Positions 11,776 to 36,061 of a stretch of 64,000 nucleotides of DNA are shown one piece after another. The notes under the pieces were generated by a model, which worked only from the letters and a program-made list of their open reading frames with translations, ran no database searches and was not told where the DNA came from. The stretch is from Kiritimatiellia bacterium (lineage in GTDB: Bacteria; Verrucomicrobiota; Kiritimatiellia; RFP12; UBA3636), in the NCBI GenBank assembly GCA_045589455.1, contig JAZNPC010000066.1:127227-191226 (forward strand), given 5' to 3'. The first letter of the stretch is position 1, and every line of letters begins with the position of its first letter. A program made the position numbers and the translations under genes.

Positions 11776-11840
11776 GCCTCGGATGCGCCCAGATAGTTGG
11801 AGACTGTTGTATGTTGTATTGTTTTCCAAAATGTGAATAA

Positions 11841-11932
11841 TTTCCCCTAATCGCCAAAATCAAGATTAGGGGAAATTTTTTTAAGCCATAAAAAATTTCC
11901 CCTAAATTCAAAAAACGACTTTAGGGGAAATT
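11841..11932. repeat. Two tandem hairpins sharing the stem tttcccctaa/ttaggggaaa.
   Basis: Hairpin 1 is tttcccctaatcgccaaaatcaagattaggggaaa. Hairpin 2 is atttcccctaaattcaaaaaacgactttaggggaaat. Both are followed by T-runs. Confidence 0.55.
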
Positions 11933-11993
11933 TTATTGTTGTATTACCATGCGTAATTTTGTTATATTAAATGCTATAAAAAGGAGTATGGTC

Positions 11994-13424
11994 ATGTTTA
12001 TTGGTAGAGAAAATGCTTTGGATCAGTTAAATGCGCTGTTGCAAAAACAAACCGCATCGCTTGTTACTTGTAGAGGACGTCGACGAATCGGTAAGAGTAC
12101 TCTTATTGAGGTTTTTGCAGAACGCTCTAAAAGCAGATTTATTAAATTAGAGGGGCGTCGTCCAGAAAAAGGACTAACTAACAATGACGAACTTGCTACT
12201 TTTGCTAAACAACTTGCTAACCAAACATCGATAGAATCAACACCTCCATCCAACTGGTTGGATGCGTTTAGAAGAATTGATTCACAAATAAATGATTCTG
12301 AGCGCACAGTTGTCTTGCTCGATGAGGTATCGTGGATGGCATATTATGACAAAAGTTTTGCCTCTGACCTTAAAATGGCTTGGGATAATTTATTCAAAAA
12401 ACATAAAAAATTAATTTTTGTTGTTTGTGGTAGTGTCTCAACATGGATACGAGAAAATATTGTAGATAATGGTGCTTTCTTGGGAAGACGCTCCTTGGAT
12501 ATCGTTCTTAAAGAATTACCAATTTCAGATTGTGTTAAGTTTTGGGGTAAAGCAGCTTCGCGTATAGATGAAAGAGAAATTATAGATGTTCTTTCTGTCA
12601 CAGGCGGTGTTCCTAGATATCTAGAGGAGATAAATCCTTCGCTTTCAGCTTTTGAAAATATTAGACGTCTTTGTTTTATGCCTAATAGTATTCTAAGAAC
12701 AGATTTTGACGAAATGTTTAATGATGTCATAAGTAAAGAACAAGACTTTTCTGCTCAAGTTCTTAGATGTTTAGCGGATGGTTCTAAAACGGGTACGGAA
12801 ATTTCTAAAATGCTTCGAGTAGATAAGGGAGGTAGAGTTTCTGCTGCGTTAAGACGATTAGAAGAAGCAGGGCTTGTTTCTAGTGATGTATCTATCAATC
12901 CTGAGACAGGAAAACCATCAAGAGAAATTCGCTTTCGTTTAAGAGATAATTATTCTAGGTTTTATATAAAATATATAGAACCAATGAAAAGAATTATTGA
13001 TGATGGTGCATTTGATTGTGTTTCTTTAGAAGCATTAGAAGGAATAGAAACCGTACTAGGTTTAGCATTTGAAAATTTAGTAGTTAATAATTATAGAGAG
13101 CTAATCCCACTAATCAATTTAAAAGGGACTTTGGTTACATCTGCTGCACCATATAGACGTGTTGGTGGAAGCAAAAAAGGATGTCAAATAGATTTGCTTA
13201 TACAAACAAGAAGAACCATTTGTGTCGTTGAGATAAAGCGACGTCAAGAAATTGGCAGAGAAATAATAAATGAGGTAGACAATAAAATAAGAGCGATAGA
13301 ACGCCCTTCTGGAGTTTCGGCAAGGGCTGCACTTGTTTATTTAGGTCATCTTTCTCCAGTTGTTGAGGCCGATGGATATTTTGATTCGATTATTCATTTT
13401 AGAAAAGTACTTGGATTATCCTGA
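11994..13424 (+). CDS. ATP-binding protein of the archaeal-type ATPase family (PF01637-like with a DUF234-like C-terminus), STAND-like.
   Basis: The N-terminus FIGRENALDQL...GRRRIGKSTL has a Walker A motif, a Walker B motif (VVLLDEVSWM) and a C-terminal winged-helix-like region. ATG at 11994 lies 7 nt after AAGGAG; upstream ATGs at 11949 and 11988 have poorer spacing. Confidence 0.7.
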   Translation: MFIGRENALDQLNALLQKQTASLVTCRGRRRIGKSTLIEVFAERSKSRFIKLEGRRPEKGLTNNDELATFAKQLANQTSIESTPPSNWLDAFRRIDSQINDSERTVVLLDEVSWMAYYDKSFASDLKMAWDNLFKKHKKLIFVVCGSVSTWIRENIVDNGAFLGRRSLDIVLKELPISDCVKFWGKAASRIDEREIIDVLSVTGGVPRYLEEINPSLSAFENIRRLCFMPNSILRTDFDEMFNDVISKEQDFSAQVLRCLADGSKTGTEISKMLRVDKGGRVSAALRRLEEAGLVSSDVSINPETGKPSREIRFRLRDNYSRFYIKYIEPMKRIIDDGAFDCVSLEALEGIETVLGLAFENLVVNNYRELIPLINLKGTLVTSAAPYRRVGGSKKGCQIDLLIQTRRTICVVEIKRRQEIGREIINEVDNKIRAIERPSGVSARAALVYLGHLSPVVEADGYFDSIIHFRKVLGLS

Positions 13425-16281: not shown

Positions 16282-19200
16282 ATGAAAAAGATTATATCGA
16301 TATTGTTTGCATTTGTTACCGTGTTGTCTATTGATGCTTTTGCTGCATGGACTATTGTTTCAGAGGGTTCAAATCCTCAGGTTACAGATGGTAATTGGGT
16401 GATCGAATTAAATTCAAAGTATAAAGCCAAGTTTGTATCTAAGGCTGATGGCGGAAGCACTGTTCTTGATATGTCAACCTTGAATAGCGACTTGGCTGCT
16501 GCTGGCTATTCGTATACATGTACTGAGTTTGATGCAAATGGCTTCCGAGGTAACGCTTATGCTATTCTAAAAACAGAGCTTACGGAAATTTATTTCCCAG
16601 ATGAGGTTACAAAAATCGGTCAGCAGTGTTTCCAAAATTGTAATGCCCTAGTAACAGTTGAGTTAGGAAGTAACTTCACCTCTTTTGCTAATACTCACGG
16701 CTTTTCACAGTGTCATTCATTAACGACATTATACACACGTGGAGAAGAAAAGGTTGTTGGTACAATTAAGCTTCCTGATGCGGTTACAACACTTCCAAAC
16801 TACACATTTGAAGCCTGTAAATCATATACTAACATGATTGCTAGAGGTGTAAAAAAAATTGGTCAGGCAACATTTTATCAAAATGGAGCAGTATGTAGCA
16901 TTGAGCTATCTCCAGAGTTATATTCTGTAACTAGTGGTAATAATAATGGAACAATGTATCAAAACTGGAACTTAACAAATTTTTATCCATCTGTTATGGC
17001 TTTAACAGATAATGTTGGAAATAGCTCCTTCCGTGAACTCCCTTTAAAGCACGGACTTGATTTTTCAAAATCAACCTTTACTGCTGTTGAAGAAAGTTCT
17101 TTTTATGGTATAGCATTGCCTAATGATAAAAAAATTATTTTGCCTTCAACACTGAACAACGTCGGCGCAAATGCATTTCGTCAGCAACAGAATGGCAGAA
17201 CGGAGTATGTAAATCTTCGTTTTCTTGGTGAGGTCCCTGTAACTTTGGGAACAGACTGCTTTACTCCACGTAATAGTGGCAGACATAATGTATTATATGT
17301 TGATGCAAAGAAGTGCACATCTTGGACAGCACAAAATTTCACTCCTCTAACAGAGGATATGAAGAGCGAAGCCTCTTATCCTGGAGAGAAGACACTTGGT
17401 AAGTCAACAATTGGTGTGAACCAAAGCGGCTGGTGGAACTGGCTTGTTCAGGAGGATCTTCCAAAGGGACCAACTGAGTGGAATATCGTTTCAGAAAATG
17501 ATGATGGCTCTATTACAATTTGTAATACTGTAGACACCTGGACCTTTAAGCTAATCCCAGATGGAAATGGTGCTTATCTTGTAAAATACGTTTCTGATGA
17601 GTTGGCTGCTGATGCAACTGTTGAGCTTGAGCTAGTAAAAATTTCTGATGACTTGGAAATTGAAATTGCAGGCTTGGCAGATGAAGCATTTAAGGGCGTG
17701 ACAAAGATTAGTAAGCTTATTCTCCCTGTAGGTGCAGATTATATGGGTGATTATGCTTTGGAAAATTGCACAAATCTTAAAGAGCTAATTCTTTCTTCCG
17801 GCTTTAATTATAATGAAGCAGGTAAGGGTGCATTCAAGGGCTGCTCAAGTCTAAGTATTGTAGGTCTTTCAACTCAATCAATTACTGCAGGTGTTGTTGT
17901 GCTTCCAGATAGTGTTACATCAATATCTGAAGAACTATTTGCAGGTTGCACAAGCATCACACAAGTTACTGGTAAGGGAGTTGCCACAATTGGTGCAAAT
18001 GCTTTTGCTAATGCTTCTGCTCTTGCACGTGTTGCATTCTCTAAGGATCTTGGTGCGCTAACCTTAGGTGAGGGATCATTCATGGGTACAGCACTTATTC
18101 AGACAATTGATTTAACACTAACACCAATGACAAAAATTCCAGCAAATGCATTTGCAAATTGCTCTGGAATTTCACTTGTTATTGTTCCTGCATCTGTAAC
18201 TGAAATCGGTGCTAATGCATTTGCTAATATGGCAGGTGGCGCAAATATCAGCTTTGCTGGTTCTGTTCCAACGCTTGGTGCAAATGCTCTAATGCCTTCA
18301 AGTGGTGCCGCAGGTTCTCGTTATGTTATCCGTGTAGAGGATGAGTATAAGGCATCATGGCAGGAAAATAACTTTACAGCTATTACAGATTCTATGATGG
18401 AGGAGTCTGATTATTATTCAAACTTCTATGTAGGACAAACTACTGCTGGTACAGACGGTACTGCAAACTGGATGTTCTGCAAAGATCCTTCAAAGACTTG
18501 GTGGATCAGTGGTGTTGGTACATATACACGCCTAGATAACAATCAGAAATTTTCTACTCAGACTGTAACTGATGGCACTTACATTATGCATGTAGTTAAA
18601 GACGGAGGAAAGCTATATCTTGCTCCAAGCGTTTGTGTTGCTGGCGGTGTTCTTGATATGTCAACATTGGATGTTGATATTGGTCTTGAGCCAGTGTCAC
18701 TACATGCAAGAGCTTTCTTTAAATTTGAAAATACACCTGCTGTTGTAAGACTGCCTGATAGTATGACATCTATCGGTTATCAAGCATTCCACGAAAATAA
18801 GAAAATTGTTGAGGTTGAACTAGGTGCTGGCATCACATCATTAGGTGATAGCCCATTTAGAGAGTGCGAGGCTTTCTCTACAATGTATCAGCGCGGAACA
18901 GCAGAGCGCATTGAGGGTCAGGTAAATATCCCTGCAACAGTAACATCTATTTCTGCTGGTGCAGAATTCTTTAATTGCGATGGCATTAAAGAGGTTATCG
19001 CTACTGGAGTAGTTGTTGTAGGTAATTCAACATTCTACGAGTGCAGCTATGTCACAAATATTGTTTTATCTCCTGATCTTTATGAATTTAAGGCAGGTGG
19101 ACAAGGTGCTTTCTATCAGTGTAAGTCGCTAAAAACAATTAGTCCAAATGAGATGAAGCTTGTAGCAACAGGCTCCGGAACCTTCCGTGAGTTACGTCTT

Positions 19201-19677
19201 TCCCATGGTTTGGATCTGTCTAAGAGTACATTCACATATGTTGGCGATAAGGCTTTCTATGCAACAAAGTGTACTGATGAAAATGGCTTTGCATGCCCAA
19301 TGGTAATGCCAAAGACTGTTACAAAACTAGATGGACAGGCATTCTGGGGCCAGAATGGAAATGGTAATCAGATTATCGTCTTCAAGGGTGATAAGCCAAC
19401 AAGCGTTCAATCAAACTCGTTAGATACAAATAATAATGGTCTGAATACTCTTGTTGTTGATGCTGAGGCATACCCAGCTTGGCTGGATGCTGGTGAGTTT
19501 ACACCTGCTTCAGAGCTTCCTGAGGCTGATGTTGCAAAGATTAATCTTCAGCTTAATTCAAATCCAAATTATCCTGGCGTAAAGCTTCTTGGTAAACTAT
19601 CAACAGGAACAGCTGGAAAATATCTAAACTGGATTGCTCAGCTTGAACAGCCTTTGACAATGATTATTATTAAATAA
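16282..19677 (+). CDS. Large secreted surface protein (1131 aa) with BspA-type LRR (LRR_5) modules and an internally duplicated two-domain architecture.
   Basis: Signal peptide MKKIISILFAFVTVLSIDAFA. Two homologous halves share VLDMSTL... and FRELxLxHGLDxSKSTFT... modules. LRR_5-like modules (e.g. GAFKGCSSL, ANAFANCS) are present. The C-terminal tail is ...EQPLTMIIIK. Confidence 0.85.
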   Translation: MKKIISILFAFVTVLSIDAFAAWTIVSEGSNPQVTDGNWVIELNSKYKAKFVSKADGGSTVLDMSTLNSDLAAAGYSYTCTEFDANGFRGNAYAILKTELTEIYFPDEVTKIGQQCFQNCNALVTVELGSNFTSFANTHGFSQCHSLTTLYTRGEEKVVGTIKLPDAVTTLPNYTFEACKSYTNMIARGVKKIGQATFYQNGAVCSIELSPELYSVTSGNNNGTMYQNWNLTNFYPSVMALTDNVGNSSFRELPLKHGLDFSKSTFTAVEESSFYGIALPNDKKIILPSTLNNVGANAFRQQQNGRTEYVNLRFLGEVPVTLGTDCFTPRNSGRHNVLYVDAKKCTSWTAQNFTPLTEDMKSEASYPGEKTLGKSTIGVNQSGWWNWLVQEDLPKGPTEWNIVSENDDGSITICNTVDTWTFKLIPDGNGAYLVKYVSDELAADATVELELVKISDDLEIEIAGLADEAFKGVTKISKLILPVGADYMGDYALENCTNLKELILSSGFNYNEAGKGAFKGCSSLSIVGLSTQSITAGVVVLPDSVTSISEELFAGCTSITQVTGKGVATIGANAFANASALARVAFSKDLGALTLGEGSFMGTALIQTIDLTLTPMTKIPANAFANCSGISLVIVPASVTEIGANAFANMAGGANISFAGSVPTLGANALMPSSGAAGSRYVIRVEDEYKASWQENNFTAITDSMMEESDYYSNFYVGQTTAGTDGTANWMFCKDPSKTWWISGVGTYTRLDNNQKFSTQTVTDGTYIMHVVKDGGKLYLAPSVCVAGGVLDMSTLDVDIGLEPVSLHARAFFKFENTPAVVRLPDSMTSIGYQAFHENKKIVEVELGAGITSLGDSPFRECEAFSTMYQRGTAERIEGQVNIPATVTSISAGAEFFNCDGIKEVIATGVVVVGNSTFYECSYVTNIVLSPDLYEFKAGGQGAFYQCKSLKTISPNEMKLVATGSGTFRELRLSHGLDLSKSTFTYVGDKAFYATKCTDENGFACPMVMPKTVTKLDGQAFWGQNGNGNQIIVFKGDKPTSVQSNSLDTNNNGLNTLVVDAEAYPAWLDAGEFTPASELPEADVAKINLQLNSNPNYPGVKLLGKLSTGTAGKYLNWIAQLEQPLTMIIIK

Positions 19678-19703
19678 AAGTTTACCATTTTAAGTAAAGA
19701 AGA

Positions 19704-19744
19704 ATGCTCCTGCTACATAGAATTGTGGTAGGGGCATTTTTTTT
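19704..19744 (+). terminator. Rho-independent terminator after the 1131-aa gene.
   Basis: An imperfect 14-bp stem atgctcctgctaca...tgtggtaggggcat is followed by T8. Confidence 0.55.
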
Positions 19745-19892
19745 ACACTATTTGTCTTGTGGAGAGATTTGACGCTAGAGATTGCGTCAATTTGGATTCA
19801 CGAACACCAATTGGGCATGCTATTGCACGCATGCCTATGGCGTGAACAAGTGTGATGCGTGAGCTATCATGTGCACAACAAATCCATCTTCT

Positions 19893-19933
19893 CTATTTTA
19901 GAAAAATGTAAAAAAGTTAAAAATCTAAAATAG
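19893..19933 (+). repeat. 41-bp repeat, copy 1 (ctattttagaaaaatgtaaaaaagttaaaaatctaaaatag), with 9-bp terminal inverted repeats.
   Basis: Identical to copy 3 at 21253..21293. The termini ctattttag/ctaaaatag are reverse complements. Confidence 0.8.
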
Positions 19934-19967
19934 GTTGTTGATTTTCTGCTTACAAAATGATATATTT

Positions 19968-20008
19968 CTATTTTAGAAAAACACAAAAAAGTTAAAAATC
20001 TAAAATAG
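19968..20008 (+). repeat. 41-bp repeat, copy 2 (variant ...aaaaacacaaaaaag...), 8 nt upstream of the ATPase ATG.
   Basis: 38 of 41 positions are identical to copies 1 and 3. Confidence 0.8.
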
Positions 20009-20016
20009 AGACACCT

Positions 20017-21249
20017 ATGAAAATTAAAAGAGACTTTTATTTGACACAGCTAATTGATCGAAAGCATAATCGGATGATCAAAATAGTGAGTGGTATTAGG
20101 CGATGTGGCAAATCATATTTACTGTCTGAATTATTTACTCAACATTTACTAGATGAAGGTGTTGATAGGCATCATATCATACATATTGATTTAGATACTA
20201 GAGACAATTTAGAATATAGGAATCCAGATGCATGTAATCAATATGTAAAATCATTAATTAAGGATGATAACATGTACTATCTTCTTTTGGACGAGGTCCA
20301 ATTGATGGAGGACTTTGTTAGTGTTTTAAATGGCTTTTTGCATATTAAAAATCTTGATGTTTATGTAACAGGAAGCAATTCAAAGTTTTTATCATCTGAT
20401 ATTGTCACAGAATTTAGGGGACGCGGGGATGAAATAAGGGTATATCCATTAAGCTTTGCAGAAATTTATCCTATTTATGACAACAATTGGGAGAAAGCCT
20501 GGGGTGATTACACTGTTTATGGTGGAATTCCTTTAGTTTTTACCTATCAAAAGGAAGAAGACAAGGTTAAGTATTTGAAAAATTTGTTTAAAGAAACCTA
20601 TTTAAAGGATATTATTGAGAGAAATAGAATTAAAAGCACAGAGGAACTAGAGGAATTATTAAATATATTAGCATCTAACATAGGTTCTTTGGTTAATCCC
20701 CAAAAATTGACCGCAACCTTTAAAAGTGTAAAAAAAGTAGACTTATCAGCTCCAACAATAAAGCAATATTTAGATTATTTACAGGATGCATTTTTTGTTA
20801 ATAAAGTACTTAGGTATAATATTAAGGGGAAGAAATATATTAATACACCATTTAAGTGTTATTTTACAGATATTGGATTAAGGAATACTAGCCTTTATTT
20901 CCGCCAAATAGAAGAGACACATATTATGGAGAACATCATATATAATGAATTACAAATTCGTGGTTATAATGTAGATGTTGGGGAGGTGAATATAGGCGGC
21001 AACAGAATGACAGAGGTAGATTTTATAGCAAATCTTGGCAACAAGAGGTATTATATTCAATCTGTATTATCTATGCCAACAGTAGAAAAAATTATGCAGG
21101 AAAAGAAATCCTTACTAGGGATAAGAGACGGCTTTAAGAAAATAATTATTACAAAAGAGAATATATTGCGAGCATATCAGGATGAGGATGGAATAACCAT
21201 TATGAGTTTAAAAGAATTTCTCTTAAATAAGAACAGTTTAGATATATAG
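20017..21249 (+). CDS. AAA_14/DUF4143-family ATP-binding protein.
   Basis: Walker A GIRRCGKSYLL, LLLDEVQLM, the sensor region TGSNSKFL...RGRGDEIRVYPLSFAEI, and a C-terminal DUF4143-like EVDFIANLG. Confidence 0.85.
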   Translation: MKIKRDFYLTQLIDRKHNRMIKIVSGIRRCGKSYLLSELFTQHLLDEGVDRHHIIHIDLDTRDNLEYRNPDACNQYVKSLIKDDNMYYLLLDEVQLMEDFVSVLNGFLHIKNLDVYVTGSNSKFLSSDIVTEFRGRGDEIRVYPLSFAEIYPIYDNNWEKAWGDYTVYGGIPLVFTYQKEEDKVKYLKNLFKETYLKDIIERNRIKSTEELEELLNILASNIGSLVNPQKLTATFKSVKKVDLSAPTIKQYLDYLQDAFFVNKVLRYNIKGKKYINTPFKCYFTDIGLRNTSLYFRQIEETHIMENIIYNELQIRGYNVDVGEVNIGGNRMTEVDFIANLGNKRYYIQSVLSMPTVEKIMQEKKSLLGIRDGFKKIIITKENILRAYQDEDGITIMSLKEFLLNKNSLDI

Positions 21250-21252
21250 AAT

Positions 21253-21293
21253 CTATTTTAGAAAAATGTAAAAAAGTTAAAAATCTAAAATAG
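21253..21293 (+). repeat. 41-bp repeat, copy 3, immediately 3' of the ATPase stop codon.
   Basis: Exact copy of 19893..19933. Confidence 0.8.
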
Positions 21294-21525
21294 GGAACAT
21301 TACTCCCCGCAGAACTTAGTACTCCACATTCGAGTATCCCTTAGCTTCCCTCTGAATATATATTTTTTGTGAGTCTGCAAAAAAAATGCAAATAACACAT
21401 TTTTTATTGTAGAAAGAATAGCACTAGTCTTGACAAATATGCAAGATAGATGATATATTTATTATTAAATATATAAGTGGTTAAACCATTGATATATAGA
21501 ATTTTGTAATCAAATAAGGACTTTT

Positions 21526-22791
21526 ATGAAAAAATCATTGTTCGTTTTGACAATCGGTGCTTTAACAGCACTATGCTTCGCAGATCCAGTTTGGACAGAA
21601 ACAGCAGATTCAACATCCTCAAATCGCAGGGCTACGGACGGAAATTTCGTTGTTGGTTGGGATGGCACAGGTGGTTCAGCATGGCGGCTATATTATGTTT
21701 CTCATGATGCTTCTGTGAGCACTGTGCTTGATATGACAACACTTTGCTCTGATATGGATGCAGCAGGAATAAAATATCCTAATACAGTAAATGGATCTGG
21801 ATTTGCTAATAAATCTGGAATTACAAGAATTGTTTTCCCTGAGGAGATTATTTATTTTCATCAAAATGCTTTCTCATCTATGTCAGACCTAGAGTCTGTT
21901 GTAATTTCTTCTAAGACAACTTGGTCGCCTAGCTCAAATCCTAAGCAGTGCTTCAGTAGTTGTACTTCTCTTTCTATGATTACACCTCGTGGTGTTGCAG
22001 AAACGAATGGTGTTGTATATCTTCCTGAGGGTTGTACCGCAATCCCAAACAATATGTTTCAGTTTTGTTATGATGCACCAATTAAGCATGTTATAGCTCC
22101 TTGGGTTGTTTCTATTAAGGAAGCTGCATTTTACACCATGTCTAAACTTGAAACAATAACAGTTTCACCAGATATACATACTATTGGTGGTAATTACCCT
22201 ATAAGCGACTGTGCCTCTCTTACAAAAATCATAGCAGGAGATAACTCTTTTAGAAACTTATCTTCATTGGATGGTAGTCAAGTTTTTAAAAATTGTAAAA
22301 ATTTTTCTATGCCATTAAATTTTTCAAAGTCAACTTTTACCTCTATCCCATATAGATGTTTTTGGGGTACAACTGACAAGGTGCCTGAAATACATTTGCC
22401 AGCTACATTAACTTATGTTGGGAAGAATGCTTTTCGTATGGACAATACTATAATGCAAAATTTATTCTATTTCTATGGCATGCCACCAACCTTTGAGTGT
22501 GATGAGGATAATATATTTGGTAAGCATGGATGTTCTTCTTCTACTCACCCAAGGCGTATTGTTTTTATTAAAGCTGAATACAAGACGGAATGGTTAACAA
22601 TGTTTGGGGATAAGTTAGCTCCTATAACAGATGCAGATAAGGCAAGAGACGATTATCCAACAAAGTCTGAAGTTGTAAAGGTTGTAGGTGCAAACGTTTT
22701 AGGTGTATCTACATATGAATCTCGCTATTGCCCATACTATGTTTGCACATTTGTTGAGCCAAATATGCCTCTATCAATCATAATAAAATAA
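21526..22791 (+). CDS. Secreted protein (421 aa), paralogue of the N-terminal half of the 1131-aa surface protein.
   Basis: Signal peptide MKKSLFVLTIGALTALCFA. Shared VLDMTTLCSDM and SKSTFTSI modules. C-terminal tail ...EPNMPLSIIIK. Confidence 0.85.
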   Translation: MKKSLFVLTIGALTALCFADPVWTETADSTSSNRRATDGNFVVGWDGTGGSAWRLYYVSHDASVSTVLDMTTLCSDMDAAGIKYPNTVNGSGFANKSGITRIVFPEEIIYFHQNAFSSMSDLESVVISSKTTWSPSSNPKQCFSSCTSLSMITPRGVAETNGVVYLPEGCTAIPNNMFQFCYDAPIKHVIAPWVVSIKEAAFYTMSKLETITVSPDIHTIGGNYPISDCASLTKIIAGDNSFRNLSSLDGSQVFKNCKNFSMPLNFSKSTFTSIPYRCFWGTTDKVPEIHLPATLTYVGKNAFRMDNTIMQNLFYFYGMPPTFECDEDNIFGKHGCSSSTHPRRIVFIKAEYKTEWLTMFGDKLAPITDADKARDDYPTKSEVVKVVGANVLGVSTYESRYCPYYVCTFVEPNMPLSIIIK

Positions 22792-22851
22792 ATCGCCTTA
22801 AACAAAGTAAATTAACATATGAATTACTTGTTTTAAAGAGGACTATGTAAT

Positions 22852-24111
22852 ATGAAAAAATCATTGTTTGTTTTGACAATCGGTGCTTTAACAGCACTAT
22901 GCTTTGCAGATCCAGTTTGGGTAGAAACAGCAGATTCAACATCCTCAAAGCGTAGAGCTACTGACGGAAATTTCGTTGTTGGTTGGGAAGGCGGAAGACT
23001 GTATTATGTCTCTCATGATTCATCAGTAGGAACAGTGCTTGATATGACAACACTTTGCTCTGATATGGAAGCAGCAGCAATAGGATATCCAACAATTGTT
23101 AATACGGAAGGATTTCTCAGTAAATCTGGAATTACAAGAATTGTATTCCCAGAGGAGATTGTTACTTTTTATAAGAAAGCCTGCTCATCTATGCCAGACC
23201 TAGAGTCTGTTGTGATTTCTTCCAAGACTGCGTGGGATAAAAAATCATATCCACAGCAGTGTTTTTCTTCTTGTACAAATTTATGTTCAATTACACCTCG
23301 TGGTGTTGCAGAAACAAATGGTGTTGTATATCTTCCAGAGGGTTGCACAAGTATTGCAAACAATATGCTTCAGTCATGTAATAATGCACCGATAAAGCAT
23401 ATTATTGCTCCATGGGCTACAGCTATTACGGAAGCAGCTTTTCAATATTGCTATAATCTTGAAACAGTAACGGTTTCAAAGGATTTGCAAACTATAGAAT
23501 CTTTTGCATTTCAGAATTGCTCATCTTTTACAAATCTTATAGCAGGGGATAATTCTTTTGAGAAGCTTTCATCAATGGGAGGATCAAGATCCTTTCAAGG
23601 ATGTTCTAAGTTAGCTCAAAAGTTTGATTTTTCAAAGTCAACATTTACTTCTATAGGATCTCAGTTTATGTATGGAGCAGACAATGTTTCAGAGATTCAT
23701 TTGCCAGCGACATTAACTCAAGTATCAGGACAAGCTTTTCGTGCAGATACCCGACCAGTGCAGCGCTTGATTTATTTCTATGGTGCTCCTCCAACATTTA
23801 ATGATGGTGAAAAGCTTGCTTTAGGTAGTACAAATAATAATCCAACGCCTAGATTTATTGTATTTATCAAAGATGAGTATAAAGAGGAATGGTTGGAATT
23901 ATTTGCAACAGATTCCTTTAATGAAATAACCGATGCAGATAAGGCAAGAGACGATTATCCAACAAAGTCAGAGGTCGTAAAAGTCTCTGCAAATCGCGTT
24001 TTAGGTACTTCAACATTTATGGCTCACTTTAATAATGGAAATAAACTTTCTACATACTATGTTTGCACATTTGTTGAGCCAAACCTACCTCTTACAATTA
24101 TAATTAAATAA
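22852..24111 (+). CDS. Secreted protein (419 aa), tandem paralogue of 21526..22791.
   Basis: The first ~70 nt are nearly identical to the previous gene, giving the same signal peptide. Protein identity is ~60%. C-terminal tail ...EPNLPLTIIIK. Confidence 0.85.
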   Translation: MKKSLFVLTIGALTALCFADPVWVETADSTSSKRRATDGNFVVGWEGGRLYYVSHDSSVGTVLDMTTLCSDMEAAAIGYPTIVNTEGFLSKSGITRIVFPEEIVTFYKKACSSMPDLESVVISSKTAWDKKSYPQQCFSSCTNLCSITPRGVAETNGVVYLPEGCTSIANNMLQSCNNAPIKHIIAPWATAITEAAFQYCYNLETVTVSKDLQTIESFAFQNCSSFTNLIAGDNSFEKLSSMGGSRSFQGCSKLAQKFDFSKSTFTSIGSQFMYGADNVSEIHLPATLTQVSGQAFRADTRPVQRLIYFYGAPPTFNDGEKLALGSTNNNPTPRFIVFIKDEYKEEWLELFATDSFNEITDADKARDDYPTKSEVVKVSANRVLGTSTFMAHFNNGNKLSTYYVCTFVEPNLPLTIIIK

Positions 24112-24153
24112 AACAAAATTATTAAAAGATAAATTACCCATAGGAAATAGAAA

Positions 24154-27100
24154 ATGAAAAGAGCACAAAATATATTTCTAGCATTTTTTGCTTTATTTCT
24201 GATGGCACAAGAAGCAAATGCTACTGTGTATAGACCAGGTTTCCAACAGTTCAGATATAGCTGTGCTAAGGACAAGGAAGCTGATTTAACAGTTACCTAT
24301 GATTCTATTACAGATGCAAATAAACGTGATATTACAGCCACAACACTCATGGCAAGCATCAATGGCACAGGTAGTGTTGTTAATCCACTTACTGGTAAAA
24401 CTTGGAATTGGTCAGACAATACCACCTTTGGCTATGAATCACAAATTTGGTTGGAGCCAGGTACTTATACCTTCTGGGGACGCTATGATGATGGTGGTGC
24501 AGTTCTTATCAATGGTGATGTGATTTATACACATGGTGCAAAATCAGGTTATAATGAATCTCCAGCTTCAGGAGATTTTGTTGTTACAAAAGCTGGTTGG
24601 TATGATTTCCGTGGCTATGTATGGGACTGGTCTGGTGGTAAGAACCCTATGGGAGAAGCTAAGAGTGCTATCCAAATGAAAAAGGATGGCGGAGCCTGGA
24701 TTATCAATATGGAGGGTGTTCCTGCTCGTTATGCAACAGGTGTAGAATATTTAGAAATCCAAAAAGCTGTTGCTTCTGAAACAGAAGGTTGCTTTGATGT
24801 GACTGTTGCTGCAACATTTCCAAGTGGAACAACGGCTCAGGTTTGGGCATTAGCTACAAATGGTAATGTTGGTCATTTACCTAAAGATAAATGGAGTTCT
24901 TCTTCTGAAGCACAGTCTATAACTAGTGATGGAACAACACAAATTTTAACTTTTACAGTCGATGCTTCTGCTCTCGGAAATCCATATGTTGTTGCATATT
25001 CAGAAAATGTTTATACAGATATTTTGACAGAGGAATCTGCAGCAAATCCAGATTTTAATTTAGAAAAAGCATATTCTTCACTTGTTCCTGTGGCTACCGC
25101 TGCAGCAGGCTATATAATAATTGATGAAGTTAAGTATTTAGATGTTGATATATTTACAAATATTGATAGTTTTGGTGTGGGAGCAACTGGTGTTGAGGGA
25201 ACAATTGAGGTTAGTACTTCAGTAGATTTCTCTAATCCTATAACTGTAGAATTAGGCTCTTTAGCTTTTGGTGCTTCACTACATACTATCTCGGGTTTAA
25301 CAACGAATGTAACCTATAATATTCGCCTTGTGATGGTCAATAGCGAAGGAGCAACAACATATACAGATCCTGTAGAGTTTACAACATTGAATCCTCAACC
25401 TGCGATTATTACTTCTACGCTTTATACCACAGAGTATAATGTGTTTAAACCAACTGTAATACTTGAGTCTTATGGTGCTGGTTCTACCACAGCAACAGTC
25501 AGCTATCAAGTTTCTACAACAGAGGATTTCTCTGATATTGTAATAGAACAAGAAGTTCCAAATGCTATGCTTGGGCAAGGGGTAGAGATTAAAATTAACA
25601 AATTAGATGACGGTTCACCACTTGTTGGAGCAAGTACTTACTACTTCCGCCCAGTTGTTGTTAATGAGTGGGGGCTTGTCACCTATGGTGATACAATTAA
25701 AGCACAATTGGCTGATACTATTATTACCTATAATGGATTTGGGTATAATAAAACCGATGCTGGTTTAGAGCTTGTTGCCTATGTCACATACGTTCTAGAA
25801 GATGCAATCTTTGATGCAACCCTAGAAATCAACAATGTTGTAGTTAAAGAGTGGAATGGTATAAATGCTGCAACTACCTTAGCATATACTATAGAAAATG
25901 ATTCACTAAAATCTCAAAATACTGCAAAACTAACATTTGATATCACAACAAATAATGGCCAAACCGTTGAAGTGCTGGAGGAAGAGTTTATCAAGAATCA
26001 GCAACGTGTTATGGCTTTTAGCTCAATTGCAGAATTGGATAATAATGATGCAAGCTATACAATAGCTAAGATTGGTGATGTGATTAAGATGCCTAAGCTC
26101 ATCGACGATAACGAAAATTATGTTGCTGGTGATACTCGCGTGGCAAGGCTCTTAGAAGATGGTAATTCTATTGAAATTATCGGTCATGGATTCACTAAGA
26201 TTACAAAGCGCATAGTTGATCCTGCCTCTGGAAATATAACGCTAGAGCGTGGTCTTGTGGTTGTTCCTCCAACTCCAGCAGGTGAGGGCAATGTTTATAT
26301 GCTAATCATTCCTCAGGCAGATAGATATTGGGATACAACTCACTGGAAAAACTTAACCAATCCAGAGGCTGGTGGCTATCCTTCTAAGAAGGATGATATC
26401 GCTATGATTTTTATGTATGGCACAAAGAGTATGTTTGTTAATACTGATATTACAGTAGGTCAGATTTGGATTGGTGTAGAAGGAGGAAACTTCTACTTAC
26501 GAGGACAACAAGGCGGCGAAGGAGCTAAAACAGTCACATTTGAGCGTAGCGATAAAGAGATGCCTCTTTTCAGAATTTCTGGTTTAGAGCAGACAGATGG
26601 CGTTGTTCTTCCTTGGGCATTGCCACACTTTTATATTCAACCAAGCTTAAAAACCCCTCTAATATTTGACTGTTCAAATGATTTATTATTTGATGCAGGA
26701 TGTCCTTTTGATCCTTTAAGTAGAGATGATGTAACAGGTAAGTCTCTTCAGAGAGTTTCATTAGAAACAGGATTTATTTTAAATATACCAAAGGGAGCAA
26801 GGGTTGTTTTTGATGGAACAAATGCAGGCAATAGAGATGGTGATACCCAAAGAGGTAATGTAACCTTCCGTTTTTCGAGTAACGCTTTTGTTGGAGAGGG
26901 AACAGTTGATTATAATGGACCAAGTAGTGTGTGCTTTACTCCAGATGCATCAGATTTTAATGGTGTATTTGATTTGACCCACATGAATAAGTACGATTCC
27001 TTTGGAATTGGAGATCGTGGTGGTGGTGTATACATGCTATTCTGGGAGGGCAGTCAACCAGGAGCAAATGCTTCTCAGCGTCTTGAGGGGCATATTGGCT

Positions 27101-28419
27101 TAGGGTCTTCTTCTAATGTTTATGCTTGGAATGATTCCTTTGGTATTATTAACTGTGGATCGGCTCACGGATATGGTTCATATGGCCCAGTGCCTAATCA
27201 CTTTGCCCCTAAAGCATTCTATTCGCGCGGTGGTGGTATAAATATTAATAATCAGAATAATGGAGATTGGGCAGCTAAGGGAATTCTAGATTCTATCTAT
27301 GCTTCTGAGCAACTTGTTCTTGAGGATGGTTTATTGTGCGCAAATTCAGAACCAACAGATGCGGCTAATTATCCAACAAATTCTCTATTATTTGCAGAAG
27401 TAAGCAATCCAGACGGAAAAGGCGTTTTTGCTGTTAATTTCAGGCATATTAGAGAGTCAAGCAACCAATCTACTGTTACTAATGGTGTTTCAAAATATAA
27501 GGGAAGAGTTCAAATTGGAAACTTCCAAGATATAGCAATTGGTGAAGGCTCTTCAGAAAATGCAAAAATTGTCCCTTGGATAGTAAATGCTATTGGTGGT
27601 TCACAATTTTGGTATTTTGCAAAAGCAGACGAGGATGGATTCTTGCTTCCAGCAGGTTATCCTTCAACAGAAAACCTAAGAAATTTCGCTTCAACTGCCA
27701 ATGCATACTGCGTAAATGGAAACTCCTTGAATCTATTGCAAGATAAGACTGTTAATTCTCTAGTTCTAAAGGGGCTTACTGGAGATAGGTCAACATTGGG
27801 TGAGGGTATGACTGCAACAATTACCTCTGGTGGTCTAATCTTTACTTCTGATATTTCTCATATTGATTCAGAAGAGGTTTATAATGCTGGAACACGAGGT
27901 AATCTAGTATTCCCTAATCGAGCATTTATCTTCGCAGGTATAAAGTCAACAACTTCACCATCAGAGATTTGGGCAAATATTTCTGCACCAAAGGGTATGA
28001 CAATTACTTACCCTGGAACATTGTTGCTTGGTGGTGATCAGACTGGTATTGATAAGGAAATACATATTTCCAATAGTAATCTAATTCTTGGTAAGAATAC
28101 AACTCCAGCAGTGATTGATGTGCCAATTTCTATGCACTCTGGTGGTTCTTCATTAACTATTGCTAATGCAGGTTCTTTGTGCAAGCAGGAGATTGTATGT
28201 ACAACAGCAACTCGCCAGTTCCCTAAAATCAATGTTGCCTTTGATGGAACAGAAAATTGCCAAAAGCTAACAATTGATGGCGAAACTCTACCAAGAGGTA
28301 CTTATGGTGCAACAGGCTCAGGAGCTGAATTTATCAACGATAAAATATTTACTGGTGTAGGTATATTGAAGGTCTTGAGCGACGATTTACTACAGCCTAC
28401 AATAATTTTTATTAGGTAA
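24154..28419 (+). CDS. Giant secreted protein (1421 aa) with an N-terminal PA14-like domain and repeated beta-sandwich-like domains.
   Basis: Signal peptide MKRAQNIFLAFFALFLMAQEANA. The PA14-like motif is GTYTFWGRYDDGGAVLINGDVIYTH...AGWYDFRGYVWDWSGG. The body is long and rich in S, T, G and N. C-terminal tail ...LLQPTIIFIR. Confidence 0.85.
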   Translation: MKRAQNIFLAFFALFLMAQEANATVYRPGFQQFRYSCAKDKEADLTVTYDSITDANKRDITATTLMASINGTGSVVNPLTGKTWNWSDNTTFGYESQIWLEPGTYTFWGRYDDGGAVLINGDVIYTHGAKSGYNESPASGDFVVTKAGWYDFRGYVWDWSGGKNPMGEAKSAIQMKKDGGAWIINMEGVPARYATGVEYLEIQKAVASETEGCFDVTVAATFPSGTTAQVWALATNGNVGHLPKDKWSSSSEAQSITSDGTTQILTFTVDASALGNPYVVAYSENVYTDILTEESAANPDFNLEKAYSSLVPVATAAAGYIIIDEVKYLDVDIFTNIDSFGVGATGVEGTIEVSTSVDFSNPITVELGSLAFGASLHTISGLTTNVTYNIRLVMVNSEGATTYTDPVEFTTLNPQPAIITSTLYTTEYNVFKPTVILESYGAGSTTATVSYQVSTTEDFSDIVIEQEVPNAMLGQGVEIKINKLDDGSPLVGASTYYFRPVVVNEWGLVTYGDTIKAQLADTIITYNGFGYNKTDAGLELVAYVTYVLEDAIFDATLEINNVVVKEWNGINAATTLAYTIENDSLKSQNTAKLTFDITTNNGQTVEVLEEEFIKNQQRVMAFSSIAELDNNDASYTIAKIGDVIKMPKLIDDNENYVAGDTRVARLLEDGNSIEIIGHGFTKITKRIVDPASGNITLERGLVVVPPTPAGEGNVYMLIIPQADRYWDTTHWKNLTNPEAGGYPSKKDDIAMIFMYGTKSMFVNTDITVGQIWIGVEGGNFYLRGQQGGEGAKTVTFERSDKEMPLFRISGLEQTDGVVLPWALPHFYIQPSLKTPLIFDCSNDLLFDAGCPFDPLSRDDVTGKSLQRVSLETGFILNIPKGARVVFDGTNAGNRDGDTQRGNVTFRFSSNAFVGEGTVDYNGPSSVCFTPDASDFNGVFDLTHMNKYDSFGIGDRGGGVYMLFWEGSQPGANASQRLEGHIGLGSSSNVYAWNDSFGIINCGSAHGYGSYGPVPNHFAPKAFYSRGGGININNQNNGDWAAKGILDSIYASEQLVLEDGLLCANSEPTDAANYPTNSLLFAEVSNPDGKGVFAVNFRHIRESSNQSTVTNGVSKYKGRVQIGNFQDIAIGEGSSENAKIVPWIVNAIGGSQFWYFAKADEDGFLLPAGYPSTENLRNFASTANAYCVNGNSLNLLQDKTVNSLVLKGLTGDRSTLGEGMTATITSGGLIFTSDISHIDSEEVYNAGTRGNLVFPNRAFIFAGIKSTTSPSEIWANISAPKGMTITYPGTLLLGGDQTGIDKEIHISNSNLILGKNTTPAVIDVPISMHSGGSSLTIANAGSLCKQEIVCTTATRQFPKINVAFDGTENCQKLTIDGETLPRGTYGATGSGAEFINDKIFTGVGILKVLSDDLLQPTIIFIR

Positions 28420-28583
28420 GTAGTAGGTAAGAGTAAAGTTTATAATTAAAGCAGCTATGGACACATAAAGTCTGTAGCTGCTTTTATATTTAATATCGTA
28501 ATTATGCTAAAATATGTAGCGAAATGAGTTTTTTCATAAAAAATGCTTGCGTTTTTACCCAGTTATATGAGAAAATTAACGCC

Positions 28584-28799: not shown

Positions 28800-30344
28800 A
28801 TGAGTACCCAAGATTCAAGAAAAATTCGTATTTTTGATACAACACTTCGCGATGGTGAGCAATCTCCTGGTTGCACAATGAACCTACGTGATAAGCTTCT
28901 TGTTGCTGAGATGCTCGAAGCAATGAAGGTAGATATCATTGAGGCCGGCTTTGCTATTGCTTCTACTGGTGACTTTGAGTCTGTTAATTCCATTGCAAAG
29001 CTTGTTAAGAATTCTACAGTTGCAAGCTTGAGTCGTGCATTGGTAAAGGATATTGATTGTGCATGGGAGGCAGTAAAGGTTGCTCCTCGCCCACGCATTC
29101 ACACATTTTTGGCAACATCACCACTACACATGGCTGCAAAGCTACGTAAGACACCTGATGAGGTTTATGCTCAGGCAGTAGAGGCAGTGAAGTATGCACG
29201 TAATTTGTGTGATGATATTGAGTTCTCACTAGAGGATTGCTCTCGCAGTGAGCGTCCTTTTATCTACAAGGTTGTTGAGGGCGTAATTGCAGCAGGTGCA
29301 ACAACAGTTAATATCCCAGATACAGTTGGCTATGCAATCCCTGAGGAATTTGGTGCATTGATTCGTGATATTCGCAATAATGTTCCAAATATTGATAAGG
29401 CTGTTATTGCTGTACACTGCCACAATGATTTGGGCTTGGCTGTGGCAAACTCATTGGCAGCTATCGCAGCAGGTGCAGGTCAGGTTGAGTGTACTATCAA
29501 TGGTATCGGCGAGCGTGCTGGTAATGCAGCTATGGAAGAAATTGTTATGGCTCTAAAGACACGCCATGAGTGCTTCCATGCTCACACTGATATTGATACA
29601 ACAAAGATTTATGCAGCAAGTCGCTGTGTTTGCAATGTCACAGGCAGTCGCGTACAGGCCAATAAGGCAATTGTTGGCGAGAACGCATTTGCTCATGAGT
29701 CTGGAATCCATCAGCATGGCGTAATGGCAAATCCGTTGACCTATGAGATTATGACACCGGAGTCAATTGGTGTTCCTCGCAATAAGATGGTATTGGGTAA
29801 GCATTCCGGTAAGCATGCATTTGCTCAACGTCTTGAGGATTTGGGCTTCCATTATGATGACGATTATGTAACCGAGCTATTCACAAAGTTCAAGGCATTG
29901 GCAGATCGTAAAAAGACAGTGTCTGACGCTGATATTGAGGCATTGGCAAGCAAGGCTGGTGTAAATGAGGTTCAGCTAGCAAAGCTAGATCGCTTTAGCT
30001 CAATGGCAAGTAATGCAATTACCTCAGTTAGCACAATCCGCTTAGCAGTCGGGGATCGCTTGATTGAGAAGGTTGCAACAGGCGATGGACCAATCAATGC
30101 TTCCTTCCGTGCAATTTGCGATATTCTGGGTGTGACCTGCCGTTTGGAGGACTTCCAGCTTTCAGCAGTCACAGAGGGTATGGATGCACAGTGCGAGGCA
30201 AGTGTTCGCGTGCTATTTGAGGACGGCAGAACATATCGTGGTAGAGGTGTTTCTACCGATATTGTTGAGGCATCTATTCTTGCATATTTGCAAGCTATCA
30301 ATACTGCAATTAGCGAAGGTGCTCCAAGTATTCTAACTCACTAA
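28800..30344 (+). CDS. leuA: 2-isopropylmalate synthase.
   Basis: 514 aa with the HMGL-like TIM-barrel (IFDTTLRDGEQSPG, HCHNDLGLAVANSLAAI) and the C-terminal LeuA dimerisation/regulatory domain. Confidence 0.95.
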   Translation: MSTQDSRKIRIFDTTLRDGEQSPGCTMNLRDKLLVAEMLEAMKVDIIEAGFAIASTGDFESVNSIAKLVKNSTVASLSRALVKDIDCAWEAVKVAPRPRIHTFLATSPLHMAAKLRKTPDEVYAQAVEAVKYARNLCDDIEFSLEDCSRSERPFIYKVVEGVIAAGATTVNIPDTVGYAIPEEFGALIRDIRNNVPNIDKAVIAVHCHNDLGLAVANSLAAIAAGAGQVECTINGIGERAGNAAMEEIVMALKTRHECFHAHTDIDTTKIYAASRCVCNVTGSRVQANKAIVGENAFAHESGIHQHGVMANPLTYEIMTPESIGVPRNKMVLGKHSGKHAFAQRLEDLGFHYDDDYVTELFTKFKALADRKKTVSDADIEALASKAGVNEVQLAKLDRFSSMASNAITSVSTIRLAVGDRLIEKVATGDGPINASFRAICDILGVTCRLEDFQLSAVTEGMDAQCEASVRVLFEDGRTYRGRGVSTDIVEASILAYLQAINTAISEGAPSILTH

Positions 30345-34460: not shown

Positions 34461-34813
34461 GGAGAAGCGACTTCTAGTCGCTTTGCGTCTCTGCGTCCCT
34501 TCGGCGTCACGTGCATCATGCTCGCTCTGCGCTTCTTGTTGATTGTTTTTTCCCGCTCCTTGTCTCAAAAGCCTTGGTGGGTCGTACACATTAGCGCTTG
34601 GCAGTTGCCTTATTGCTTCGCCAGATTTAGCAATAATTAAGGCAACAACAAGCGGTAATGTGCGCGTCAGCGCCCCATCACCACACCCATCACACCAGCC
34701 CAGCGCCCTCCGCGTCCTTTGCGTCTCTGCGTCCCTTCGGCGTCACGTTCACCATGCTGTTGATTGTTGGCTGTTGTATCGTTTTCCCGCTCCTCGTCTT
34801 AAAAGCCTTGTTG
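34461..34813. repeat. GC-rich intergenic repeat block: two copies of a ~90-nt unit (ctttgcgtctctgcgtcccttcggcgtcacgt...gttgattgtt...ttcccgctcct...aaaagccttg) plus the tggagaagcgacttctagtcgctttgcgt module.
   Basis: Copy 1 is ~34481-34570 and copy 2 is ~34717-34813. The tggagaagcgacttctagtcgctttgcgt module recurs exactly at 53636-53664. Confidence 0.7.
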
Positions 34814-34837: not shown

Positions 34838-36061
34838 TTATATTAATGCAACCGGGATAATATAATTTTGTTTATCAATTGCTGATAGAGATTCTGCCAT
34901 GCAAATGATTGCCCCATTCCCCCTTGGGATTGTTGTTTTATCCAATACTTTAAATTGTCTTGTTAATTCTGTGCCTGGGTTCGAAGTACGCTTAATTTCA
35001 ATTGGATGTAATTCTCCGTCGCTTTCCATTACTAAGTCAATTTCGTTATTATTTGTATCTCTATAGTACCACAAAAGACAGTCTTTTGCATTGTTATGAT
35101 ATGTTTTAATAATTTCAGAAATTACAAAATTTTCAAGTATAGCTCCGTTCATTGCTCCATTAGCAAGGATTTCTGGAGAAGAATATCTAGTGAGATATGC
35201 TACAAGACCTGTATCGAAAAAATAAAGCTTTGGAAATTTAATAGTCCTTTTCAATAAATTGTTTGAGTAGGAACGTAAGAAAAATATGATATCCGATTTT
35301 TCTAGAATCTTAAACCAACGCTTTGCTGTGTCAACGGATATGCCTACATCTTTTGCAATGTCTGAAAAATTAAGAATTTGACCCACTCGACATGCAGCAG
35401 AACGAATGAAGTCTGTGAATTGTAGTACATCTGTAATATTCGCAAAATCTCTAATATCTCGTTCAATGTATGTTTGTAAATAACTACTGTAAAATAAATC
35501 TCTATCAGTATATTTTCCGCTTATATGACCTGGCATAGAACCATTCCAAATACGTGTATAAATTTCTTTAGTATCTGCTTTTTTATTTGATTTGTTTCGG
35601 TTCTTTAGGTTTTCTAGGTTAATGGCAAAAGGTTCGGTTGGGCCCTTTCCAAAAATTTCATGTTGTGAAAGTGTGGGTAGGTGAATTACCGCAATTCGTC
35701 CAGCAAGTGATTCCTGTGCAAGCTCCATTAGTTTGAATGGCTGAGAACCAGTGAGCCAAAATGATGATGGTGCAGCACCATTATCTATTGCCATTTTTAT
35801 ATATGAAAAGAGTTCGGGTGCATACTGAACCTCGTCAATTAGAATTGGCAATGAATGCATTTGAAGAAATAGTGCTGGATCGTTAGCAGCAAGATGTCTT
35901 TCTTGCAAATTATCTAGAGAAACAACAGTCCTATTCTTTGACATTAGTTGTTTAAGCAATGTTGTTTTACCAACTTGACGGGCACCTGTGATAAGAATAC
36001 AAGCATATTCTTTAGAAATAGATTGTATTTTTTTTTCTATATCTCGAGTAATGTATCTCAT
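34838..36061 (-). CDS. AAA_14/DUF4143-family ATP-binding protein (second paralogue).
   Basis: Walker A ITGARQVGKTTLLKQL, ILIDEVQYAPEL and a C-terminal DUF4143-like region. ATG at 36061 is preceded by AAGGAG. Confidence 0.85.
   Translation of the reverse strand: MRYITRDIEKKIQSISKEYACILITGARQVGKTTLLKQLMSKNRTVVSLDNLQERHLAANDPALFLQMHSLPILIDEVQYAPELFSYIKMAIDNGAAPSSFWLTGSQPFKLMELAQESLAGRIAVIHLPTLSQHEIFGKGPTEPFAINLENLKNRNKSNKKADTKEIYTRIWNGSMPGHISGKYTDRDLFYSSYLQTYIERDIRDFANITDVLQFTDFIRSAACRVGQILNFSDIAKDVGISVDTAKRWFKILEKSDIIFFLRSYSNNLLKRTIKFPKLYFFDTGLVAYLTRYSSPEILANGAMNGAILENFVISEIIKTYHNNAKDCLLWYYRDTNNNEIDLVMESDGELHPIEIKRTSNPGTELTRQFKVLDKTTIPRGNGAIICMAESLSAIDKQNYIIPVALI

Follow-up and report, generated by a model that had tools for sequence, protein, structure and literature searches.

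A candidate mobile cassette in a Kiritimatiellia bacterium: a PDC-S01-type ATPase gene between 41-bp repeats that may serve as its own operator sites

Lambda morons and the P2/P4 hot spots are phage insertion sites for accessory or defence genes, while the Rep proteins of iteron plasmids, DnaA, and the archaeal Orc1/Cdc6 proteins with their ORB repeats are initiators and regulators that have operators around their own promoter. The locus described here has features of both. It is an ATPase gene with two 41-bp repeat units in front of it and a third behind it, and it lies in a stretch of 64,000 nucleotides (the window) of contig JAZNPC010000066.1 from a Kiritimatiellia bacterium. Its protein is a full-length match to the profile of PDC-S01, a family that the literature knows as a gene-family call: an ATPase fused to a PD-(D/E)XK domain, and a very common, unvalidated candidate defence system (PMC12988326). 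PDC-S01 ranks fourth among candidate systems in prokaryotes, and among individual loci in rumen genomes it comes first (PMC12988326, PMC13356809); another study likewise treats it as a candidate without validated defence (bioRxiv 10.1101/2024.01.29.577857). In the literature that we found the gene family is known, but three features of the present locus are undescribed: the cis architecture of two to three cognate 41-bp units, an insertion/deletion (indel) bounded by a single unit, and the concerted evolution of the units.

A preliminary description of the window had placed two exact copies and one three-mismatch copy of the 41-bp sequence around the gene, and this placement was confirmed exactly. 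The distal unit, R1 (19893..19933, + strand), lies upstream of the -35 hexamer of a putative promoter and forms the left boundary of the cassette. The proximal unit, R2 (19968..20008, +), has three interior differences, starts 1 nucleotide (nt) past the -10 hexamer and stops 8 nt short of the ATG. The third unit, R3 (21253..21293, +), is identical to R1. The open reading frame (ORF) fits between R2 and R3 as had been described, beginning 8 nt after the former and ending 3 nt before the latter. The identity of R1 and R3 stretches to 43 bp (TCTATTTTAG...ATAGG), and the number of matches to the 41-mer in dinucleotide-preserving shuffles was 0.00. The inverted repeat that had been noted at the ends of the units is present in every one of them, though its length is not 9 bp but 10 bp (CTATTTTAGA / TCTAAAATAG), and 11 bp in R2. 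A unit consists of two inverted half-sites of 9-10 bp (arms CTATTTTAG), separated by about three turns of the helix. The left end of the cassette has four such half-sites and the right end two, and the outer arms of R1 and R3 make a perfect 10-bp inverted repeat at the ends of the cassette.

The repeat proved not to be a dispersed one. A search of the 64-kb window for both 8-bp half-sites at the right spacing, with ≤2 mismatches, returned no unit beyond these three, and among genomes of 185,579 species (one genome each) the right-hand 22-mer was present in only two contigs, those of loci L001 and L002 discussed below. R3 was considered as a terminator and rejected: its RNA fold reaches only -6 kcal/mol, the 10-bp ends pairing around an open loop of 21 nt with an interior that is not self-complementary, and no U tract follows.

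The 34-nt AT-rich spacer between R1 and R2 is filled by a match, found by consensus scan, to a putative sigma-70-like promoter (19938..19966, +; TTGATT, 17 nt, TATATT, the -10 being preceded by a TG). Four nt separate the end of R1 from the -35 hexamer. The gene's own promoter is bracketed by repeated palindromic sites in helical phase, as in an operator pair. The units are most likely bound by the protein that the cassette encodes, acting as an oligomer and through its winged helix. Because R1 and R2 bracket the -35/-10 promoter, their occupancy would repress the gene and so provide autoregulation; R3, just past the stop codon, would be a third site of the same kind. Both the binding and the repression are suggested by unit sequences that are specific to each cassette and by the winged helix of the modelled protein.

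The gene (20017..21249, +) encodes 410 residues. PADLOC assigned the product to PDC-S01 (profile PDLC04787, E 3.7e-113, residues 3-405 on profile positions 11-409 of 412), and Pfam recognised AAA_14 at residues 19-150 (E 3e-31) and DUF4143 at residues 197-347 (E 3e-19), which is the AAA_14/DUF4143 domain order of COG1373. The Walker A GKS and Walker B DE motifs are invariant. Searches of PHROGs, NCBIfam and PDB sequences with the ATPase gave no named family, exact-protein look-ups returned no record for it or for the product of the BspA gene downstream, and cultured-phage records hold only relatives of <55% identity. The segment has about 30% G+C, against about 40% in the flanking genes. Compared with the closest relative (L002), the gene shows a nonsynonymous divergence (dN) of 0.004 and a synonymous divergence (dS) of 0.034 (dN/dS ~0.12), indicating purifying selection.

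An AlphaFold2 (AF2) model with a mean confidence (pLDDT) of 76.9 comprises an AAA+ core (residues 21-142), a helical lid, a winged helix (208-283) made of three helices and a beta-hairpin, and a C-terminal alpha/beta module (300-379) that would be the PD-(D/E)xK-like part. DUF4143 is listed in the PD-(D/E)XK superfamily (PMC3424549). Fold matches in the PDB were SSO1545, origin-DNA-bound Orc1/Cdc6, NB-ARC proteins, clamp loaders, McrB, Can2 and Card1; the similarity is generic for AAA+ proteins, with low whole-chain template-modelling (TM) scores, and we assumed that the nucleases Can2 and Card1 were matched through the C-terminal module. The acidic residues of the nuclease motif, E305, E311, E333 and D335, are invariant. 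In contrast, the canonical ExK, which is kept as VEVK or IEIK in ATPase-2, ATPase-3 and the paralogue in the window and reads (V/I)E(V/I)K in other DUF4143 proteins, is replaced by YIQS(A/V) at residues 346-350 (~21052-21066) in 17 aligned sequences of this subfamily (45-100% identity). The subfamily therefore lacks the catalytic signature of PD-(D/E)xK nucleases, while its modelled fold is compatible with one, and the biochemical activity of the nuclease-like domain is uncertain. To judge from the alignment, the domain may be inactive or may use a relocated lysine; K358 is nearly invariant.

Comparison with related genomes revealed that the cassette is polymorphic. A segment of 1,360 bp (19934..21293, +, or equivalently 19893-21252, the register within the repeat being arbitrary) is missing from the syntenic locus L001, which comes from a metagenome-assembled genome of Verrucomicrobia/Kiritimatiellae type. 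L001 consists of the left flank, one unit identical to R1 and R3, and the right flank, with no ATPase. A 97% relative, L002, from a Kiritimatiellae metagenome-assembled genome of roe-deer rectum, has the same three units and the gene. The repeat is thus the exact boundary of a presence/absence polymorphism, which bears out the earlier proposal of repeat-mediated recombination. That proposal was to be abandoned if the 41-mer occurred only here and related genomes carried the ATPase at the same position without repeats. The first half of this applies, the 41-mer being confined to the locus; the second does not, L001 being the opposite case, a repeat without the ATPase.

The single unit of L001 is followed by the short tail of the cassette, and the "empty" site is thus, on its sequence, what a cassette has left behind, not a naive target. 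R1 and R3 being direct repeats, a recombination event that joins them would delete the gene and leave one unit with a short tail, as in L001, and the reverse reaction or homologous exchange could restore it. The agent could be passive RecA-dependent recombination over the 43 bp, a site-specific enzyme or a process driven by the cassette protein. A metagenome scan with a 24-mer of the conserved left flank, aimed at alleles without any unit, gave no match. Between the window and L002, the cassette diverges by 1.0% overall, versus 3.8% in the flanks; the idea that the cassette is younger than its flanks was nevertheless dropped, the dS of the ATPase (0.034) not being clearly below the divergence of the flanking intergenic DNA (~0.04). 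A contig of 1,377 bp (L003) was considered as a circular form and set aside as uninformative, since its 1,317 unique bases plus 30 + 30 of repeat are what a k=31 unitig between identical repeats would contain.

We found the same arrangement in other places. Units of 41 bp with the ends CTATTTTA..TAAAATAG are retained by relatives of 79-95% identity in six or more other contexts; the terminal half-sites are conserved in them and the interiors variable. R2 ends exactly 8 nt before the ATG in all of those examined, R1, where recognised, ends 80-83 nt before it, and a third unit lies 2-3 nt past the stop codon in L215, L004, L218, L129 and L226. The contexts are a prophage of the L004 type; L014/L219, where another, divergent DUF4143 gene stands beside the cassette; L128, with a DUF2924 gene nearby; L129, whose neighbours are hypothetical genes and whose R1 is 8 nt shorter and was read by eye rather than pattern-matched; L215, where, as in L216 and L217, a 95% relative occupies a different locus of a related bacterium; L218; and L226, after a comEC-like gene, where only R2 and R3 are present (plan R, ORF, R). 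In L128, which has no third unit, an imperfect direct repeat of about 43-50 nt (TTTTCACCAAATCCGGTCGGAGTTTCGGGAATTTTTGAGGGA; 2503-2545 and 3951-3993 of that locus) flanks the 80% relative.

The alignment of the window with L215 delimits what moves. From R1 to R3, 1279 of 1401 positions are identical; left of R1 the similarity is random, and to the right homology continues for about 27 nt. This tail (21294..21320, +) is identical at 19 of 27 positions to the sequence after R3 in L215, is unrelated beyond, and also stands beside the unit of L001. These limits point to a transferable unit made up of R1, promoter, R2, ORF, R3 and a short tail, at ~19893-21320. The suggestion of a mobile cassette with the ATPase as cargo hence stands insofar as a discrete cassette has moved horizontally; a passive cargo within an element resembling a miniature inverted-repeat transposable element (MITE) is not what was found, and no target-site duplication was visible in the flanks of the window, L215, L004, L218 or L129.

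To see how general the plan is, we surveyed 82 non-redundant loci whose homologues are 43-100% identical, drawn from collections of viral and metagenome sequences, and scored upstream direct repeats against a null distribution with a 95th percentile of 12. A significant upstream pair was present in 42/82. The two copies are offset by distances grouped at 65-68, 72-77 (22 loci), 85-88, 128-134, 147 and 155 nt, which approximate multiples of 10.5. The copy closer to the gene generally stops 5-20 nt short of the ATG, and in 25/42 the two copies enclose a sigma-70-like promoter (at least 9/12), compared with 15% of shuffles. Palindromes or inverted ends characterise most of the units, TGCCAATATTGGCA and GGTAAATTTACC being examples. 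Third copies on the downstream side are less frequent, standing clearly above the null only in the group of the window and in L004, L129, L131 and L037/L040. The sequences of the units vary between protein subfamilies and between paralogues of one genome: the neighbouring paralogue of L014 has different units, of 30 nt. With position fixed and sequence dependent on the subfamily, R1 and R2 are the gene's own promoter-bracketing sites and not a MITE. Their specificity appears to be encoded by the cassette, of which the only protein has the modelled winged helix.

The units are also conserved and evolve together. The 123 nt of units are the same in the window and L002 (0 differences), whereas the intergenic DNA on either side has 17 mismatches and 7 gaps over 447 nt. 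In 4/4 three-unit cassettes compared, the closest pair is R1 and R3 (41, 39, 36 and 39 of 41 positions), units usually find their best match among the other units of their own cassette, and the run pattern is A6..A5 in all three units of L215 and A5..A6 in all three of the window. The likeness of R1 to R3 and the shared run patterns argue that the units of a cassette are homogenised, presumably by gene conversion or by repeated recombination through the units.

Relatives of 81-82% identity occupy a phage hot spot, the junction between the portal and prohead protease genes of lambda-like prophages (L004-L013, L043, L218), where the spacings of the units are 73 and 1284 nt, as compared with 75 and 1285 in the window. 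In L048, L050, L051 and L053-L060 this junction is empty; many relatives have the two genes overlapping or 5-35 nt apart, with no unit. The 81-82% relatives thus resemble phage morons, being an independent promoter and gene (and terminator) inserted at such a junction, which the window copy does not; the cassette differs from a moron in having its own repeated cognate sites at both ends and in occurring as a module in bacterial chromosomes too. Viral contigs were scanned for the phage-type unit; the five that came up had all been recovered in the portal search, and none of them has a unit standing alone. With unit-free empty junctions and no lone phage units, it follows that insertion needs no pre-existing unit.

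Across L043-L122, the junction is in some cases empty and in others occupied by one of three different DUF4143 ATPases, by ORFs assigned from motifs or by unknowns. Besides two other DUF4143 ATPases and the unknowns, the cargo comprises Fic-like, Sel1-like, SMR-like and kinase-like ORFs (identified by motif only). Several occupied junctions have in common a left motif, ATCTGGGAATATCTGGTAAT, which L128 also contains, and a pair of CCTTTAC..GTAAAGG hairpins on the right. The DUF4143 ATPase of L044-L047 is a different one, with three upstream units of its own (TTCCATCCGAAAAGTGT), and a unit of the first type (type 1) follows directly after its stop codon, succeeded by the same terminator as in L004. 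In L045, the boundary of homology is the left edge of that type-1 unit.

We consider, with a probability of roughly 0.6, that the locus is a self-contained, horizontally mobile, moron-like PDC-S01 cassette, that the units are operator sites of its own protein, and that recombination between R1 and R3 removes or restores the gene. How the cassette is mobilised is a separate matter, on which the action of its own protein is a reading of its own, taken up below. As a member of its family, the cassette is also a candidate for a role in defence. Several observations weigh against this reading. The third unit is missing in L014 and L128, and a site past the stop codon is not needed for simple autoregulation. 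PDC-S01 is only a candidate for defence, the parts given to the units in binding and transcription are deduced, and the subfamily has IQS(A/V) in place of the canonical ExK. The dS of the ATPase (0.034) is about the same as the divergence of the intergenic flanks (~0.04), which would suit loss in the lineage of L001 and gain in that of the window alike. The allele of L001 comes from a metagenome bin, in which mis-assembly at a 43-bp exact repeat is possible; such an artefact is unlikely because reads longer than 43 bp resolve the repeat. The strongest hint to the contrary is the type-1 unit of L045, whose position is easier to reconcile with a landing or recombination site than with a private operator.

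This last point leads to the rival that survives best, one that we regard as unlikely but to which we leave appreciable weight because the type-1 unit follows a different ATPase in L044-L047. In this alternative the units are att-like sites, and a circle of 1.36 kb, containing one R, the promoter, R2 and the gene, integrates and excises at a single R by means of a recombinase supplied in trans or of its own protein. The alleles look the part: the empty one has one unit and the occupied one has identical 43-bp units at both ends, as expected of a duplicated core, and R1 and R3 are always the closest pair, as repeated excision and integration would produce. The type-1 unit directly past another ATPase in L045, with the homology boundary at its left edge, and the R, ORF, R plan of L226 also agree with it, and L003, the 1,377-bp loop between repeats, is compatible with a circle, though equally expected from a k=31 assembly graph. 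Yet the ATPase is the only ORF of the cassette and no recombinase gene is found in it or next to it, sister phages with an empty junction have no single unit, and the unit of L001 carries the 27-nt tail that marks a remnant and not a naive target. The placement of R1 and R2 relative to the promoter and the ATG is moreover explained by regulation.

A more improbable proposal is that the AAA+/winged-helix/nuclease-like protein itself binds the units, synapses R1 with R3 and catalyses both excision and re-insertion. If the protein does act on its own repeats, the meaning of very many "defence" annotations changes, and if the cassette is self-mobilising, PDC-S01 would be in part a new class of single-gene mobile elements, instead of or besides immunity genes. 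The architecture offers handles for these questions: a defined DNA site as the candidate ligand of the protein, a promoter on which autoregulation would operate, and a boundary for which a natural empty allele exists. Whatever the mechanism, the cassettes are compact modules that move between the chromosomes of bacteria and a hot spot in prophages.

We give very little credence to a transposon with terminal inverted repeats, or a MITE-like element, that would begin with CTATTTTAGA and end with TCTAAAATAG, use the internal arms as subterminal sites and be moved, with the ATPase as cargo, by a transposase. The 10-bp inverted repeat at the outer arms of R1 and R3, the four half-sites on the left and two on the right, and the occurrence at several unrelated loci with a sharp left boundary would all be in keeping with such an element. 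Against this, no target-site duplication is visible in five contexts, the 41-mer is not dispersed, the cassette has no transposase-like gene, homology runs about 27 nt past the right "end", and the empty allele keeps a complete unit, which is not the footprint of a cut-and-paste event; distant relatives, furthermore, have two direct units and often no downstream copy.

Two last alternatives are hardly credible. That the units are functionless, produced by local duplication of AT-rich intergenic DNA, with the indel a chance deletion, would agree with their AT-rich, low-complexity sequence and with a 41-mer confined to one locus of the genome, but not with a unit length of 41 and distances of 8 and 80-83 nt kept in 79-95% relatives in unrelated contexts, with half-sites conserved while interiors vary, with a helically phased two-unit plan across the family, or with 0/123 differences in the units against ~4-5% in the flanks. 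That they are origin-like sites of an Orc1/Cdc6-like initiator in a minimal selfish integrating replicon is suggested by the fold matches to origin-DNA-bound Orc1/Cdc6 and SSO1545, by repeats flanking the 34-nt AT-rich spacer immediately 5' of the gene and by the circle-sized contig L003; however, the promoter explains the spacer more simply, the fold similarity is of the generic AAA+ kind with low whole-chain TM scores, no extrachromosomal form is in evidence, and many genomes have several chromosomal PDC-S01 copies (PMC12988326, PMC13356809).

As to autoregulated initiators in general, the cassette is like them in that an AAA+ winged-helix protein is encoded beside phased repeats that bracket the promoter, and it differs in the nuclease-like domain and the third site after the gene; replication is not in evidence. 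The pair of alleles recalls the formation of solo long terminal repeats (LTRs), with identical direct repeats in the occupied state and one repeat plus the tail in the other, but here the repeats measure no more than 41-43 bp and what they enclose is one bacterial gene instead of a retroelement. Like the attC site of an integron cassette, the unit is an imperfectly palindromic site that follows an ORF, has conserved inverted ends and a variable interior, and is associated with exchange at a fixed place; unlike it, the unit is 41 bp long, only its 10-bp ends pair, so that no attC hairpin is formed, and the cassette has its own promoter. There is no integrase in or beside the cassette, and a reading of the unit shows no GTTRRRY/RYYYAAC core pair, GTTAAAA failing at the last position; on these grounds attC identity was rejected.

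The flanking genes at 16282-19677, 21526-22791 and 22852-24111 encode leucine-rich-repeat proteins of the BspA type according to Pfam, whereas 24154-28419 has no Pfam match, so that three of the four co-oriented neighbours of the ATPase are BspA-type. The array is variable, L002 having one gene where the window has three (21526-22791, 22852-24111 and 24154-28419; region 21617-28537). The upstream BspA gene of L001 is about 77-82% identical to that of the window, and the intergenic region 96-99%. The intergenic stretches 19750-19892 and 21294-21360 are unusually conserved in three genomes and are richer in G+C than their surroundings, and a terminator-like hairpin lies at ~19706-19744. Rfam scans of 19000-22000 and of the uninterrupted site of L001 gave chance-level matches only, and there is no tRNA near the site, so the target of the cassette is not a known RNA gene. 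Compared with L002, a leuA-like gene (28800-30344) has a dS of 0.22, far above the values for the 3' end of the BspA gene (0.085), the ATPase (0.034) and the intergenic DNA (~0.04); from these figures, lineages seem to have exchanged the surface-protein/ATPase region at a later date than the core genome.

The two further ATPase genes that had been noticed in the window are indeed present. The one at 34838-36061 (- strand) encodes AAA_14 and DUF4143 and was called PDC-S01 by PADLOC; the one at 11949-13424, with ATPase_2 and a helix-turn-helix (HTH) domain, was called PDC-S27. Upstream of the former, a perfect 15+3+15 palindrome of 33 bp at 36112-36144 (AGTAAAATTTACGAT tgc ATCGTAAATTTTACT), operator-like and unlike the 41-bp unit, abuts the -35 hexamer of a promoter reading TTGAAA, 17 nt, TATAGT. 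Directly 5' of the latter, two 47-nt hairpin units (AAATTTCCCCTAA..TTAGGGGAAATTT; 11836-11937) are 79% alike and 55 nt apart, a two-unit layout that resembles that of the cassette in a different ATPase family, here with an ArsR-like HTH. The window further contains a dispersed G+C-rich repeat family with the core CCGCGTCTCTGCGTCCCTT, at 34481-34522, 34703-34758, 53680-53723, 53899-53919, 54163-54194, 54381-54405, 60087-60121 and 60216-60238. Immediately past the 3' end of the second ATPase gene (34838-36061), one pair of these repeats forms a tandem duplication of about 235 bp, and the family is also found 15 nt after R3 in L217, from a related bacterium.

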